Shown here: positions 8,946 to 60,077 of the stretch, one piece after another | Numbering within the stretch: the stretch's first letter is position 1 | How the letters are laid out: every line of letters starts with the position of its first letter | Source of the DNA: Nitrospirota bacterium | GTDB lineage: Bacteria; Nitrospirota; UBA9217 | Length of the DNA: 64,000 nucleotides | Assembly (NCBI GenBank): GCA_963663225.1 | Contig: OY760142.1 | Location: forward strand, 195,913-259,912 | Reading direction: 5' to 3' | Program-made: the position numbers and the translations under genes | Notes under the pieces: model-generated | Told to the model about the DNA's origin: nothing | The model's input: the letters and a program-made list of their open reading frames with translations, nothing else | Databases searched by the model: none

Positions 8946-10266
8946 CAGGAACTGAATTTTCGACCTGAGTGGCTTGCTGTTTCGCAGATTTCATTAACAG
9001 AATTCCTCTGTCGGTCAGTCCCCAAAAAACCCAAAAATACGTCCCCATTTCATAATAGGAAAAGCGATCGCCAAAAACATTTGTAATAGCATGCGCTATA
9101 GCGCACCCGATAAAACCGAGCCCGAGACCGCGTTGAAATTGGCTTGTGCCGCCTCTGAACAACTTCCAGCCGCTTCTGAGCGCACCCAAGAAAATGAGCA
9201 GCAATAAGAACGTGCCGATAAGGCCTTGCTCGCACAGAGTCTTTAAATAGAAGTTATGCGTGTCGGACCAGTGTTCGCTGATATGCGCCACGGTAAAGCC
9301 TTTGAACCCGCTCCCGAAAATCGGATATTCATGGAACATGTCCATTGCTGAGTTCCAGAGCATCAGACGTGCCGCTGCGGAAGACTCCAGCTCACCGGTT
9401 CCGCTTTCGGTCATCTGTATACGTTCAACGACTGAAGTCGGCAACACGACCTGCCACAGCAGAACAAGAATCACTACCGCGACTAAGAGACGCCTGTCCT
9501 TCAGAAGGCCATAAACCGCCAACACGCTAAAAGCAGCAAGGTATGCTCCTCGGGAAAACGTAAAAAAGAGCGGATGGAGTGAAAAAATCAATGCCGCCAG
9601 ATACAGCCATTTTCTTTTCCGATCCTTGTCCAGAAGGAAAAGGCCCAGAATAAATGAAAAACAATAGGCGATAAACGCGCCGTAGTGGTTCGAGCCGAGC
9701 CCGGCTACCCAGAAAGGACCCGCGTCCCTGCTTTCATCGACAAAAGACGCGCCTGCAGTAAAATTCCTGAAGCTTTTTACAGCGACGTACAAGACCACCA
9801 GGGTCATGATGACAACCAGTTGTTTCTGTTGTTTTTCGTCCTTGATTGCGCTCACGGTCAGAAAGTAGGTGAAGATCATTACGCAATAACTTTTCCAGAT
9901 CACGAGAACCTGGCTTTCCCGCGTTATGGGTGTGGGAAGGCCGAAATTCAGGCTGACATTCCATACCGAAATATAGCTGACGATAAGGAAAATCAGCACG
10001 ATAACGGAATTATCGGATTTTGAAAAACCTTTTTTATTCACGAAAATGCCGATAAATACTGCAATGATCAGCATGTCGATGAAATCCTTGCCGTACGGAA
10101 AGCTATACAGCTTGTGGTACACGTTCGGCTGCGGTATCAGGGCGACTGCCAGATACAGCGCCCATTCCGCTTTTTTTGCGATGCTGATAATCGCGGTGAT
10201 AATTCCGCCGAAATAAAGCGTGTTGACTAATATCCAACTGATGATTGGTCGTAAAAAAGCTATCAT
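8896..10266 (-). CDS. O-antigen ligase/polymerase-family membrane protein (Wzy_C-like); possibly the exosortase-associated O-glycosylation ligase type
   Basis: 456 aa polytopic membrane ORF with Wzy_C-like motif LHPLFFTFSRGAYLAAF and a large loop containing EHWSDTHNFYLKTLCEQG. Confidence 0.7.
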   Translation of the reverse strand: MIAFLRPIISWILVNTLYFGGIITAIISIAKKAEWALYLAVALIPQPNVYHKLYSFPYGKDFIDMLIIAVFIGIFVNKKGFSKSDNSVIVLIFLIVSYISVWNVSLNFGLPTPITRESQVLVIWKSYCVMIFTYFLTVSAIKDEKQQKQLVVIMTLVVLYVAVKSFRNFTAGASFVDESRDAGPFWVAGLGSNHYGAFIAYCFSFILGLFLLDKDRKRKWLYLAALIFSLHPLFFTFSRGAYLAAFSVLAVYGLLKDRRLLVAVVILVLLWQVVLPTSVVERIQMTESGTGELESSAAARLMLWNSAMDMFHEYPIFGSGFKGFTVAHISEHWSDTHNFYLKTLCEQGLIGTFLLLLIFLGALRSGWKLFRGGTSQFQRGLGLGFIGCAIAHAITNVFGDRFSYYEMGTYFWVFWGLTDRGILLMKSAKQQATQVENSVPVVTGKAMLEIPRRKRV

Positions 10267-56906: not shown

Positions 56907-57394
56907 AGTGATTTAGCTTGCCTCTGGGATTGGTGGGGTTTTACGAATAACATAATTTGTGTAACTTACTGCATTATAAGGAGAAAGTCAAGCAACATAT
57001 GAGTTTTTGCCTGTTAAGAACAAAAAAACCGCTGCCTTCATCTTTGTATTGACAAACCCGGCCCGTTGAGAGCAAATTCTTCATACGATTTGACATAATA
57101 CAGGTGTGCAATTGTAAAAAAAGGGCTGCCGTAACCAGCAGGGTAACCATCCCTAAAGGGCTCCACGCTCGCCTCATCAAAGACGCCACACAACTGCGTT
57201 TCTCCTAAAAAAGCTATTCCATACATTGCATATTAGCCGTAGCATGACGACTATTCCGAATTTTGAATATTAGTCATTTAAATATGCTTTTAAATTCAGT
57301 CGGATACAGCAAATTCTTTCTTAAATTCATTGGCCATCATTTCAATTATATGCTATATTTCCCGAAGAACTAATATCTGGTTAGTCTAACTGAA

Positions 57395-58072
57395 ATGGCG
57401 AAAAACGATTTATACATATCCCCTTTTGAAGGCAAAACACCCGAAGAACGTTTTGTAGCCTATATTGATATTCTTGGCTTTGGTAAAGAAGTAAACGATA
57501 ACTTAGAAGCTGCCATAGACGTTTATGAAGATTTGATTGGTCATTGTCATTTATTAGGTCGCCTAGTAAATCTGTCAATCTATTCCGATTCAATTATTCT
57601 GCAATCTGCAAAATTGATTGACGTCGCATATGTAGCGACAATGGTTCAATTTATTGCTCTTACACGAAATTATCTGGTACGAGGAGGCATCGCGGTCGGG
57701 AAGCATCTTGAATCGAGGCAAAATGGAAATTTATTCGTGGTCAGCAAAGCATTAGTAAAAGCTGTAAAACAGGAGAAGCTAAATCAAACCCAAGAGACAC
57801 CGTGTATTACCCTTCATCATGAAATAAATCCAGTTCCGTCGGTCGTATTAAATGATCCTGCACGCATTGTTGTTGAATACAAGGGACAAAACATTGTTAA
57901 TCCTTTCAATCCCCACATGGAATCAAGCCAAAGAGATGGAATACATTCTCAACTAATTGAACTACGTGACAGATGTCCCGAGAAGGACCAACCGAAATAC
58001 ACTTGGTATATAGAATTGATGGATTTCATTCTAAGAACATATGGGGAAAGTGGACGACAGCGGCCAAATTAG
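57395..58072 (+). CDS. hypothetical protein with minimal nucleotide-cyclase-like palm domain (class III cyclase / GGDEF / Cas10-palm superfamily-like)
   Basis: 225 aa ORF in a low-GC stretch. FVAYIDILGFGK resembles the cyclase metal-binding motif FADIVGFT, with a second Asp about 40 residues later (SIYSDSIIL) and RGGIAVGKH resembling RIGIHTG. Assignment rests on motif resemblance only. Confidence 0.45.
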   Translation: MAKNDLYISPFEGKTPEERFVAYIDILGFGKEVNDNLEAAIDVYEDLIGHCHLLGRLVNLSIYSDSIILQSAKLIDVAYVATMVQFIALTRNYLVRGGIAVGKHLESRQNGNLFVVSKALVKAVKQEKLNQTQETPCITLHHEINPVPSVVLNDPARIVVEYKGQNIVNPFNPHMESSQRDGIHSQLIELRDRCPEKDQPKYTWYIELMDFILRTYGESGRQRPN

Positions 58073-58156
58073 ATATACCAACAACACCGGCGAGAGGGAC
58101 AGAGAATCACGCCCTCCTCATGGCGGCGTTAGCGGAATATTCTGGTAATCAATCGC

Positions 58157-58975
58157 ATGACTATACCATACATAAAACAATATGAAACCCAATTACATTC
58201 GCGACATTATATTCGAAATGCGACTGCTGCAAATTATTGGTATGATTTTTCTGCAAATCGTGTATCCACTTATGTTAATAATTACCATGACGATTTCTGC
58301 ATGGTTATCAATGGCTCAGAAACTGAGAACGACGCCTATGTCTTGCCATATAAAGTCTTTAAAGGTTTTTTTACTGAAGATTACCTTGATCACCGAAACC
58401 GTTGGAATGGTACCATCAAAGACAATATCATCAAACTCACATTGACAGCGAATAACAAGCCAAACAAATATCTATCCGTTGGTGCTTTTTATAATGCCTT
58501 TTCATTTCTCGTCTCAAACCTGCCCGATGAGAATGAAATTCATGTAGTAACGACAGATAGCTTAGAAATCAATCTTTCAAATCTGCAGAAACTGATTCAG
58601 GAGTTTAACGAGCATTACTCAAGTATTGCTCCGGAAAAGCGGATTACCGTATCGGAACGAATCGCGAGACCCAATGCAATCACAGATTATATTAAGAAAA
58701 TTCAAAAATTTACTTGCCAGATATGCAAGCTTCCCGGCTTTCAACAAAAAAACGGTTCCAAATATATCGAAGCCCATCACATCATAGAACTGCATGACTT
58801 AATTCCAGGATCATACTGCTCTGACAACATCATTACAGCCTGCCCAACTTGTCATAGGAAGCTACATTACGCATCTGTATTGTACCAGACTCAAAACGAG
58901 CAAATAGTATCTGTCATTATTAATGGCCAAGCTTATTCTTTTCAAAGAAATGTTATTTCTGAAAAAGTAAAGTAG
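58157..58975 (+). CDS. HNH-endonuclease-domain protein with N-terminal domain of unknown function
   Basis: 272 aa ORF; C-terminal HNH/zinc-finger motif CQICKLPGF...YIEAHHIIELHDL...CPTCHRKLHY; the N-terminal 190 aa have no motif I can assign. Confidence 0.6.
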   Translation: MTIPYIKQYETQLHSRHYIRNATAANYWYDFSANRVSTYVNNYHDDFCMVINGSETENDAYVLPYKVFKGFFTEDYLDHRNRWNGTIKDNIIKLTLTANNKPNKYLSVGAFYNAFSFLVSNLPDENEIHVVTTDSLEINLSNLQKLIQEFNEHYSSIAPEKRITVSERIARPNAITDYIKKIQKFTCQICKLPGFQQKNGSKYIEAHHIIELHDLIPGSYCSDNIITACPTCHRKLHYASVLYQTQNEQIVSVIINGQAYSFQRNVISEKVK

Positions 58976-58992
58976 GGCCTAACGTGTCGTTC

Positions 58993-59159
58993 GAGTCCCG
59001 CGCTCAAGCAGCGCGGGGCTCAACTCGTCGTTCTCCCCTCGCTTCGCAAACGAGGGGAGAATCCCGGGGCTGAGCCTAAGCCCCATCCCCTTGCAAAAAC
59101 GCTCGGGGAGAACCAGGGGCTCGAAACCTACCGCTAACGCGGAGGCTCAGCCCCGGGAT
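58993..59159. repeat. GC-rich cluster of nested hairpins / inverted repeats downstream of the HNH gene
   Basis: Hairpin 58993-59021 (GAGTCCCGCGC/GCGCGGGGCTC, one mismatch); perfect 10-bp hairpin 59032-59060 (TCTCCCCTCG/CGAGGGGAGA); 16-bp inverted repeat pair ATCCCGGGGCTGAGCC (59061-59076) and GGCTCAGCCCCGGGAT (59144-59159). Confidence 0.6.
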
Positions 59160-59205
59160 TAGTCCATGACAGAAGCTATTCACACCCGTAAGGAGACTTT
59201 TCACA

Positions 59206-59952
59206 GTGGACATCCCACGGATATTCAACATTACTGAAAGTGCTCACCGCATCCACAACCCGTTCACAGCCGAAAAGCTCGCCACTCTCGGCGCGGCGCT
59301 GCGTCTGGAATCGGGAGCCCGAGTGCTCGACCTCGGCAGCGGTTCTGGAGAGATGCTGTGTACCTGGGCACGCGATCACGGCGTCATCGGCACCGGCATC
59401 GACATGAGCAAGTTATTCACCGAGCAAGCGAAACTCCGTGCTGAAGAACTCGGCGTCGCCCATCAAGTCAAGTTCATCCATGGCGATGCTGCCGGCTATG
59501 TCTCTGACGAGAAGGTCGATGTGGCAGCCTGTCTCGGTGCCACTTGGATCGCCGGGGGATTCACGGGCACTATCGAACTTCTGGCGCGGAGCCTGCGCAC
59601 CGGAGGGATCATCCTCATCGGCGAGCCCTACTGGCGGCAGTTACCGCCGACGGAAGATGTTGCCAAGGGGTGTCTTGCCAACTCAATCTCCGACTTTCTC
59701 ATGCTTCCAGAACTTCTCGCGTCTTTCGGCCACCTTGGCTACGATGTCGTTGAAATGGTTCTGGCTGACCAAGACGGCTGGGACAGATACGAGGCGGCCA
59801 AATGGCTCACCATGCGCCGATGGCTTGAAGCCAATCCCGACGACGAGTTAGCGAAAGATGTTCGAGCCAAACTGACCTCGGAACCCGAGCGCTACGCCGC
59901 TTACACGCGTGAATACCTGGGCTGGGGTGTGTTCGCGCTGATGCCGCGGTGA
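59206..59952 (+). CDS. class I SAM-dependent methyltransferase
   Basis: 248 aa ORF with GTG start preceded by AAGGAGA RBS; motif I VLDLGSGSGEM. GC-rich coding sequence (by eye). Confidence 0.75.
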   Translation: MDIPRIFNITESAHRIHNPFTAEKLATLGAALRLESGARVLDLGSGSGEMLCTWARDHGVIGTGIDMSKLFTEQAKLRAEELGVAHQVKFIHGDAAGYVSDEKVDVAACLGATWIAGGFTGTIELLARSLRTGGIILIGEPYWRQLPPTEDVAKGCLANSISDFLMLPELLASFGHLGYDVVEMVLADQDGWDRYEAAKWLTMRRWLEANPDDELAKDVRAKLTSEPERYAAYTREYLGWGVFALMPR

Positions 59953-60077
59953 TGCGGGGATTACCGGGCGACTCAAAAAGTGGAGAAAATCCAATCATGC
60001 CTACCAAGTCATTTAAGCCTATACCGCTGCGCGGAGAGGTTTAATTCAGGCATTAAATATCGAGGTGTATTGAAATT

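Follow-up and report, generated by a model that had tools for sequence, protein, structure and literature searches.

What is the dense cluster of hairpins that separates an HNH endonuclease gene from a methyltransferase gene in the 64,000-nucleotide stretch of DNA analyzed here (the window)? The cluster is the densest of its type across the 64-kb window. A preliminary description had offered three options for it, i.e., a structured non-coding RNA, a MITE/REP-like element, or a recombination site, and had also pointed to a possible tRNA remnant. Our analysis indicates that the cluster is very probably the junction of three integron gene cassettes, comprising an attC site, a cargo-free mini-cassette (hereafter X), and the start of a methyltransferase cassette. 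The corresponding features are listed in Table 1.

Table 1. Features of the cassette array and of element X (window coordinates)
Feature	Position	Strand	Basis or remarks
Upstream part of the low-GC islet, with ORF225 (57395-58072, no known family)	56930..58128	+	tentative
HNH endonuclease ORF, McrA-like	58157..58975	+	Pfam HNH E 9e-9; PADLOC type IV REase-like E 1.4e-9
Canonical attC closing the HNH cassette	58977..59032	+	R2 covariance model, bottom-strand fold
X, 128-nt ORF-less, cargo-free mini-cassette, TTCTCCCC...CCCCGGGA	59031..59158	+	homology limits, model R3, end joining
Hairpin H2 of X	59031..59061	+	inverted repeat; family covariation
Outer stem of X, 18 bp, perfect	arms 59060-59077 / 59143-59160	+	inverted-repeat scan; family alignment
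Inner hairpin H3 of X, box GGAGAACCAGG at 59107-59117	59080..59120	+	folds; conserved window versus L047
Small hairpin H4 of X, CCGC-TAAC-GCGG	59131..59142	+	folds, covariation
Methyltransferase cassette 5′ end, TTAGTCC...	59159..59205	+	homology boundary; RBS AAGGAG 59190-95, GTG start 59206
Class I SAM-dependent methyltransferase ORF, 248 aa	59206..59952	+	Pfam Methyltransf_31/25/11
Decayed methyltransferase attC, right end of the array	59999..60054	+	R2 29.4 bits, E 2.7e-5; R'' GCCTACC; junction A60052|TT60053

Structure of the hairpin cluster

An inverted-repeat scan recovered both hairpins of the preliminary description where it had placed them. Hairpin 1 has arms at 58993-59004 and 59010-59021 (12 nt, 92% complementary), and hairpin 2 has arms at 59031-59044 and 59048-59061 (14 nt, 93% complementary). 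The inverted repeat reported as 16 bp is indeed perfect and actually reaches 18 nt, with 65 nt between its arms. The recurring words were found again as well, GGGGCTC at 59014 and 59116 and GGGGAGAA at 59054 and 59105. The proposed comparison with shuffled controls bore out the strength of the fold: a 241-nt segment had a minimum free energy of -120 kcal/mol against -83.3 ± 4.6 kcal/mol for 200 dinucleotide shuffles (z = -7.9), and 0 shuffles reached the native value. The minus-strand fold of the segment gave z = -6.0. Furthermore, the boundary in base composition is genuine, the GC content stepping from ~0.38 to ~0.59 at the cluster.

Nested GC-rich hairpins in an intergenic position could also constitute a REP/BIME-like or MITE-like host repeat, or a compound terminator between the HNH and methyltransferase genes. 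The claim that the segment holds more structure than a terminator needs was right, and no hairpin has a T-run behind it; neither terminator-like sites nor promoter-like sites on the + strand were found in 58976-59205. With regard to a host repeat, the proposed word search at up to three mismatches detected no second copy of the 16-nt arm in the 64-kb window, and the family covariance model of X (R3) detected no further copy of X there. Arm and element are thus single copy in the window, and no target-site duplication flanks X. Copies related to X occur in cassette arrays of many unrelated organisms instead of being dispersed in one genome, and the sister contig L206 is without the element at the same junction. 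We regard a host repeat or a compound terminator as extremely unlikely.

The remaining suggestion was that the segment represents a tRNA 3′ half, marking the attachment site of an island, and the word GTTCGAGTCCCGC (58989-59001) does resemble a T-arm. However, ARAGORN reported 0 tRNA or tmRNA genes in the window. The covariance-model search, performed with Rfam 15 at gathering thresholds, returned 0 matches over the whole window; at E ≤ 10, the region 58700-59500 yielded no tRNA and only chance-level matches to miRNA hairpins (E 0.8-8). Chance alone would give 1.1 matches per window to this 13-mer at up to two mismatches, and no other copy of the T-loop-like word was found within the window. 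Moreover, GTTCGAG...CTCAAC corresponds to the L'' and L' boxes of attC sites in unrelated contigs. The suggestion of a tRNA remnant was accordingly dropped, its probability being practically negligible.

The cassettes on either side of X

For the detection of attC sites, we used a home-made covariance model (R2) built from 20 attC sites that came from other contigs only, the window being excluded; its E-values are roughly calibrated, and the training sites were delimited partly by hand. It superseded an earlier, weak model (R1) of 13 mixed-length attC sites, which gave nothing significant. The top match of R2 on both strands of the 64-kb window was a full-length one at 58977-59032 (33.7 bits, E 1.7e-6), directly behind the TAG stop codon of the HNH ORF (58973-58975). 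The second-best match was the methyltransferase attC of Table 1, and the third-best had an E of only 0.25. Since R2 matches there, hairpin 1, together with the 'T-loop-like' GTTCGAGTCCC, is to be taken as the attC of the HNH cassette.

The boxes of this site can be read in order. R'' is GCCTAAC (58977-83), followed by the spacer GTGTC, L'' GTT[C]GAG (58989-95), a stem-loop at 58996-59018 (9-bp stem, 5-nt loop), L' CTCAAC (59019-24), and the spacer TCGTC. The next bases are GTT (59030-32), with the crossover point between G59030 and T59031. Thus, the site has the attC features that we used for comparison (PMC4889954), namely an R'' of the form RYYYAAC, G|TT, L''/L' boxes with an extrahelical base, spacers, a stem-loop, and a length within 57-141 nt. 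The RRRY part of its R' box is now supplied by X (CTCC). With TTAGGC, the start of the methyltransferase cassette elsewhere, R' would exactly complement R''. Folded as the bottom strand, 58977-59030 plus TTAGGC gives an R box of 8 bp and an L box from which a G is extrahelical, with 4x4 unpaired spacers between the two; the dot-bracket of these 60 nt is ((((((((....((((((.((((((((.....)))))))).))).)))....)))))))). Near-identical attC sites were found in two other loci (L191 and L096), and the L'' box GTTCGAG is identical to that of unrelated attC sites, e.g., in L023 and L200. Judged by sequence and predicted fold, 58977-59032 is a canonical integron attC site. We also tried a single giant attC of 188 nt (58977-59164) and rejected it; its extreme ends are unpaired beyond the R box, and the homology to the X family begins at 59031.

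Homologues of the HNH protein, 42-54% identical, were found in many non-integron contexts. Upstream of the HNH ORF, the islet part with ORF225 (56930-58128) is tentatively either a separate cassette or a part of the HNH cassette. A candidate left junction, A|TTGGTG, is located at 56929|56930, and the drop in GC begins near 56950. Between ORF225 and HNH, 58076-58134 is a candidate degraded attC with 9.7 bits and E 7.4 by the weak R1 model; R2 found no match at 58076-58134, and shuffled sequences fold as well as the hairpin there (z = -0.1).

On the cluster's opposite side, the methyltransferase has ~8000 homologues, the best of them >90% identical across Ignavibacteriota, Acidobacteriota, Desulfobacterota, and Planctomycetota. 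Copies of its coding sequence were detected in at least 586 species, with one genome scanned per species, and one copy was in a Bathyarchaeota MAG. At the DNA level, the identity to the window is 85-95% over 80 loci, our summary figure being >90% across at least 586 species. In more than 30 of these 80 loci the homology starts sharply at 59159. Most of those loci have G|TTAGGC at the boundary, preceded by unrelated sequences of attC layout (RYYYAAC ... G|TT), and one class of methyltransferase loci has a classical 60-nt attC (GCCTAACAACTCATTCAAGCCGACGCCGCTTCGCGGCGCGGCTTAATTCAGGCGTTAGGC) 3′ of the ORF. Because of the sharp boundary, the G|TTAGGC after unrelated attC sites, and the attC downstream, the methyltransferase is an integron gene cassette whose first base is 59159. 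Its attC, which reads GCCTAAC...GGCGTTAGGC when intact in other genomes, has decayed in the window from AAC to ACC and from GTT to ATT.

Clusters of attC sites lacking an integron-integrase are termed CALINs (Cury et al. 2016, PMC4889954). The window holds two significant attC sites, ~1 kb apart on the + strand, and ends 4 kb to their right. A tblastn search with IntI1 as the query (E 1e-5) found no IntI in the window; the same query found IntI in 15 loci. The array therefore qualifies as a CALIN, as no IntI is encoded in the window.

The array is flanked by genes for a histidine kinase and for an M24 peptidase, on a chromosome that is Desulfobacterota-like by the annotations of homologues of this peptidase. 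In the closest relative among the loci examined (L206, M24 peptidase 95% identical), the same methyltransferase cassette with the decayed attC ends at the same right junction GGCA|TTAAATA before the peptidase gene; upstream it reads attC-G|TTAGTCC, without X and without HNH. The more distantly related L207 (86%) is free of cassettes, and G|TTTAATATCGAGG stands where the homology begins, plausibly representing a secondary GTT site. The array thus appears to occupy a secondary GTT site before a housekeeping gene, and a housekeeping region would have taken in integron cassettes there. Since L206 shares the right part and differs upstream, the methyltransferase cassette was probably fixed first and the upstream content changed later. 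Such a later change would imply that integrase activity was supplied in trans.

Limits, structure, and family of X

By homology to family members (BLAST of the islet against the loci), X starts at 59029-59031 and ends at 59155-59160. It lies exactly between the G of the HNH attC and the TT of the methyltransferase cassette, i.e., G59030|TT...A59158|TT. Like a cassette, it is bounded by crossovers and runs from the TT after a G to the base before the next TT. The + strand of 59031-59158 is free of ORFs of at least 40 aa. The model R3 scored X at 104 bits (E 1e-17) in the window.

When the two ends of X are joined (59158 to 59031), the 18-bp inverted repeat lengthens to 27 bp and is still perfect, one arm being CGAGGGGAGAATCCCGGGGCTGAGCCT and the other its complement. 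This observation explains hairpin 2: it would comprise the 11 outermost base pairs of a long stem, which integration opened by a cut at A|TT, just as integron cassettes are split within their own recombination site when they integrate. The final TT of the outer stem (59159-60) already belongs to the next cassette, and the crossover is marked by AAT/ATT triplets at 59060-62 and 59158-60. Within H2, TTCTCCCCTCG is the distal half of the R' box of X and CGAGGGGAGAA its R''-like box, so that the sole possible 'cargo' is the loop of 8-11 nt within the H2 boxes, CTTCGCAAA in the window. In H3, GGAGAACCAGG is a second GAGAAC (L'-like) box opposite a degenerate 5′ arm.

In contrast to canonical attC sites, the site of X is a perfect stem that has neither an unpaired central spacer nor extrahelical bases near the R box. 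Its R-like and L-like GAGAAC boxes are ~22 nt apart, as against ~5 nt in a canonical attC. The crossover triplet is AAT/ATT in the window copy and in one third of the family, whereas it is invariably AAC/GTT in the attC sites studied. R2 found no match to the site of X in 59054-59165 at E ≤ 10. A canonical 3′ attC is thus not what X has, although a hairpin with AAC/GTT-type boxes at the crossover exists. On these sequence features, the site of X would be attC-like in function, yet is non-canonical.

X is not confined to this locus. At least 120 metagenome contigs matched a pattern derived from the blocks common to the window and the Bathyarchaeota locus L047. The pattern fixes GCTGAGC, GGAGAACCAGG, and GCTCAGC, and the conservation of these blocks is therefore partly imposed by the search; diverged members with other arm sequences, detected with the covariance model, also keep the inner GAGAAC box (L091, L092, L082, L140, and L179). 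Among the matches listed, 96 copies were fully delimited, with lengths of 115-134 nt. In the same listed matches, the base before X is G in 88 of 95 copies, and the sequence after X is TTRRRY-like (TTAGGC, TTGGGC, TTAGCC, and similar). The contexts of the 96 listed copies are nearly all distinct, both upstream (95/96) and downstream (93/96). For the perfect repeat, the median in these listed copies is 23 bp when X is circular and 15 bp when it is linear. In 77 of the listed copies, AAC...GTT or AAT...ATT forms the exact end of the palindrome. Their crossover triplets are AAC/GTT in 52, AAT/ATT in 32, and mixed in 12, while the 3′ triplet of X, again among the 96 listed, is GTT in 56 and ATT in 40. 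The window copy is a member of an AAT-CCCGGG subfamily, which stands beside varied neighbours in other contigs.

A consensus of 25 diverse members has four helices with 36 pairs, and compensatory changes were observed in 18 of the 36 in the alignment of these members, including the switch from AAC/GTT to AAT/ATT at the crossover. The H2 stem covaries between CG and UA (alignment columns 4-9 with 26-31), five pairs of the outer stem have compensatory changes in the family alignment, and in H4 (columns 121-123 with 137-139) each pair is backed by 9-11 compensatory sequences. The alignment thus supports selection on the structure of X.

The copy in L047 is 69% identical to that of the window, with compensatory changes, and lies behind an acyltransferase gene and before the same methyltransferase cassette. 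A fused mobile unit of X and methyltransferase, as the window and L047 might suggest, was considered and rejected; the two copies belong to different subfamilies, and X has >90 other neighbours. A linkage of X to HNH was ruled out as well, no X contig encoding a homologue of HNH or ORF225. Over 0.97 Mb of loci, the X model matched a single copy each in the window and in L047, and weakly a further one in L021; metagenome contigs have up to three copies per array. Among the loci examined, there was no pair of occupied and empty alleles for X.

The surroundings of X are those of integrons. Canonical attC sites lie on the strand of X in 105 of the 110 R2 matches in X contigs. An attC match stands directly before X in 32 of 80 copies, half of them in loci outside the training set, and at least 10 copies directly follow an attI-like motif, TAATAACTGG|TT. 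IntI homologues are encoded nearby, divergent to X, in six loci (L085, L093, L168, L130, L146, and L123), and the integrases of L168 and L130 pass TIGR02249, the integron-integrase model of NCBI (cutoff 265 bits), with 372 bits. X therefore behaves as a cassette integrated at attI and attC in one orientation, as seen from its adjacency to both kinds of site, the strand bias, and the nearby integrases. It sits behind varied attC sites or at attI, in array orientation; with its varied neighbours and with attI positions near intI, it has the marks of a mobile unit. Regarding the three options of the preliminary description, the recombination site thus held, the MITE/REP-like element fell away, and the idea of a repeated mobile non-coding element proved true in spirit, X being a widespread family, but one of integron cassettes.

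The same fold could primarily serve at the RNA level. X would then act on the downstream methyltransferase gene as, e.g., an sRNA, an insulator, or an element for RNA stability, and would be what an ORF-less cassette carries as its cargo. Its strong fold is conserved, with compensatory changes; a distance of 47 nt separates X from the methyltransferase start downstream, X often comes first after attI in other arrays, and G-U-type pairs occur at some top-strand positions, e.g., columns 72/95. ORF-less cassettes with regulatory roles, such as promoters and sRNAs, are documented (PMC8876359, PMC6557892, and PMC11014356), which favors such a function. However, the palindrome that is split around the crossover accounts for nearly all of X, leaving the loop of 8-11 nt. 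There was no Rfam match, the X of the window has no sigma-70-like promoter, and no T-run follows any hairpin of X. C-A mismatches and G-U pairs are similarly common, so the pairing of X has no clear strand bias. We consider it unlikely that X is primarily an RNA element. An RNA-level function is compatible with the mobility of X as a cassette, and may exist as an added function.

Another alternative is that X is a miniature non-autonomous derivative or a footprint of an IS1111-attC element or of a group IIC-attC intron. In that case a DEDD transposase with a seekRNA, or a reverse transcriptase, would move it in place of the integron integrase. Insertion sequences of the IS1111-attC group that target attC were reportedly described by Tetu & Holmes in 2008. 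Both types of element insert specifically into attC sites, and footprints of IS1111-attC have been reported in arrays (PMC11187229); in addition, the repeats of X look subterminal, and a circular form is implied. However, the subterminal repeats of IS1111 members measure 11-13 bp, and their terminal extensions 7 and 3 bp (PMC11187229), whereas the left arm of X is 29 nt from its end and the right arm runs past its end, and this is not the IS1111 geometry. For a group II intron ribozyme, 128 nt is far too short. Neither a transposase nor a reverse transcriptase adjoins any examined copy of X. Furthermore, the ends of X are TT...G/A exactly at G|TT, as in cassettes, and X is also found at attI-like sites. 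This origin is very unlikely, and we retain the interpretation of X as an integron cassette.

Possible movement of X and comparison with known systems

A mechanism for X can start from what was observed, namely the attC identity of the preceding site, the exact insertion point, the circular-permutation signature, the family, its varied neighbours, its fixed orientation, and its covariation. As a circle, X would be a dumbbell with a 27-bp perfect stem bearing the box pair GAGAA(C/T) / (G/A)TTCTC, capped at one end by a loop of 8-9 nt; two small hairpins would close the opposite end, and one of these carries the second GAGAAC box. An integron integrase acting in trans may have opened the stem at (G/A)|TT and recombined it with the HNH attC at its G|TT. 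A cut of the stem at (G/A)|TT would explain why 11 stem nucleotides are found at the left end of X (hairpin 2) and the rest at its right end (18-bp repeat). We infer that X is moved as a folded single strand by the integron integrase, and the asymmetric inner hairpin would set the choice of strand. X would be mainly a selfish minimal cassette, and its hairpins may also alter read-through into the methyltransferase gene.

More broadly, we tentatively propose, as a serious possibility, an undescribed class of 'naked' cassettes: cargo-free selfish sites of ~125 nt that parasitize integrons, use a non-canonical attC tolerating AAT/ATT, are widespread, pile up at attI with several copies per array, and maybe reshape expression or shuffling. 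At the present locus, ordinary integron biology turns an odd hairpin cluster into a precisely parsed cassette junction; the mini-cassette family is the unexpected part, and a recombination site alone might act as a successful mobile element within integrons. If integrases move X, the rules for attC would be relaxed (no unpaired spacer, distant boxes, AAT/ATT crossover), and X would offer a ready natural substrate for studies of strand choice. X would also matter for annotation, since attC models are likely to miss it, as R2 did, and neighbouring cassettes would then be mis-delimited. Its frequent place right after attI could separate the first real gene of an array from the cassette promoter.

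The array compares well with the attC sites and CALINs described previously (PMC4889954). It shares with them the order R''(RYYYAAC)-spacer-L''...L'-spacer-G|TT, a length of ~60 nt, and the extrahelical base of the L box; at least two sites lie directly 3′ of ORFs in the same orientation, with no integrase near. It differs in that the methyltransferase attC is decayed and X, instead of a TTRRRY, completes the R' box of the HNH site.

IS1111-attC elements and group IIC-attC introns resemble X in occupying cassette sites, spreading between arrays, and implying a circle; unlike them, X encodes nothing, and its ends obey the G|TT rule at both attC and attI. A further candidate for comparison is OTH-22-1, a widespread structured DNA motif of Bacteria, Archaea, and environmental DNA that has been proposed as an attC variant (Breaker lab, PMC8632094). 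OTH-22-1 starts with RYYYAAC (PMC8632094), whereas X starts with TTCYCCC; the two are set apart here by description only, and OTH-22-1 could overlap with X or with the H1-type attC.

ORF-less cassettes have been reported from a Treponema oral metagenome (PMC6557892) and from Vibrio superintegrons (PMC11014356), and have been reviewed as an accepted subclass (PMC8876359). X resembles them in having no ORF, being cassette-bounded, lying in the normal orientation of the array, and often being first. The literature searched held no description of a ~125-nt cassette family made solely of a non-canonical recombination site. Where the described ORF-less cassettes combine non-coding cargo with a classical attC, X is 115-134 nt long and essentially cargo-free, and its site, missed by the attC model, is a long stem that pairs perfectly and bears two GAGAAC boxes. 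Thus, attC sites, CALINs, and ORF-less cassettes are already established, and the cargo-free mini-cassette with a non-canonical attC looks new.

Cassette content and spread

The SAM-methyltransferase cassette is extraordinarily widespread. DNA copies with 85-95% identity occur in at least 586 species-level genomes, and the carriers belong to many bacterial phyla and include one Bathyarchaeota MAG. About 8000 homologues were found for its protein, the nearest being more than 90% identical. Copies of the cassette differ in their 3′ regions/attC types (attC, the cassette recombination site), of which there are at least two. No specific match to the methyltransferase was obtained in NCBIfam, and PADLOC gave only a weak one, to mad2. 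For the 225-aa ORF of the low-GC islet, Pfam, NCBIfam and PADLOC returned no match, and no attC was confirmed between this ORF and the McrA-like HNH gene. The two may constitute a two-gene defence-type cassette.

Location of the features and the loci compared
Feature	Location	Context or comparison
225-aa ORF	window 57395-58072	within the low-GC islet
SAM-methyltransferase cassette	window 59159-60052 (ORF 59206-59952)	compared with loci L001-L080
Array right end, A60052 followed by TTAAATATCG	window 60040-60075	compared with L206 1900-1935 and L207 6270-6300
Crossover triplet examples	L082, L083, L089, window 59060-62 / 59158-60	X family copies
attI-like motif	L085, L093, L100, L125, L129, L135, L155, L168, L170, L188, L192	immediately upstream of X

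Right end of the array and other attC-like candidates

In the window, an M24 peptidase gene lies directly downstream of the right end of the array. Since the more distant, cassette-free relative (L207) has G followed by TTTAATATCGAGG at the corresponding point, the sequence suggests that an integrase used a secondary GTT site for insertion here and that the last attC decayed afterwards.

In the sister contig (L206, 860-960), hairpins of the GTTGGGC...GCCCAAC type separate the methyltransferase cassette from a gene for an outer-membrane beta-barrel. These were not called by our home-made attC covariance model and may be further degraded attC sites from different array content. A weak match to the same model at window 9209-9259 (minus strand; 15 bits, E 0.25), far away from the array, is probably a chance hit.

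The X family and its integron setting

Just 5′ of the ORF-less mini-cassette X, at least 10 unrelated contigs share a conserved attI-like motif (...CCGTTCAGATAATAACTGG and, beyond the crossover, TT), and in several of the contigs with this motif before X an integron integrase gene is found 0.1-0.7 kb away. The motif looks like the attI, i.e., the primary insertion site, of one widespread environmental integron class. Certain X copies contain an internal tandem duplication or stand as X-X in tandem (L129, 1687-1795; L082, 1625-1872); such arrangements are consistent with recombination of outer with inner GAGAAC boxes.

The crossover triplet of the X family covaries, being AAC/GTT in 52 copies, AAT/ATT in 32 and mixed in 12. 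To our knowledge, AAC is regarded as invariant among the attC sites studied so far. Therefore, either the AAT/ATT copies of X are immobile, or the change is tolerated by their cognate integrases.
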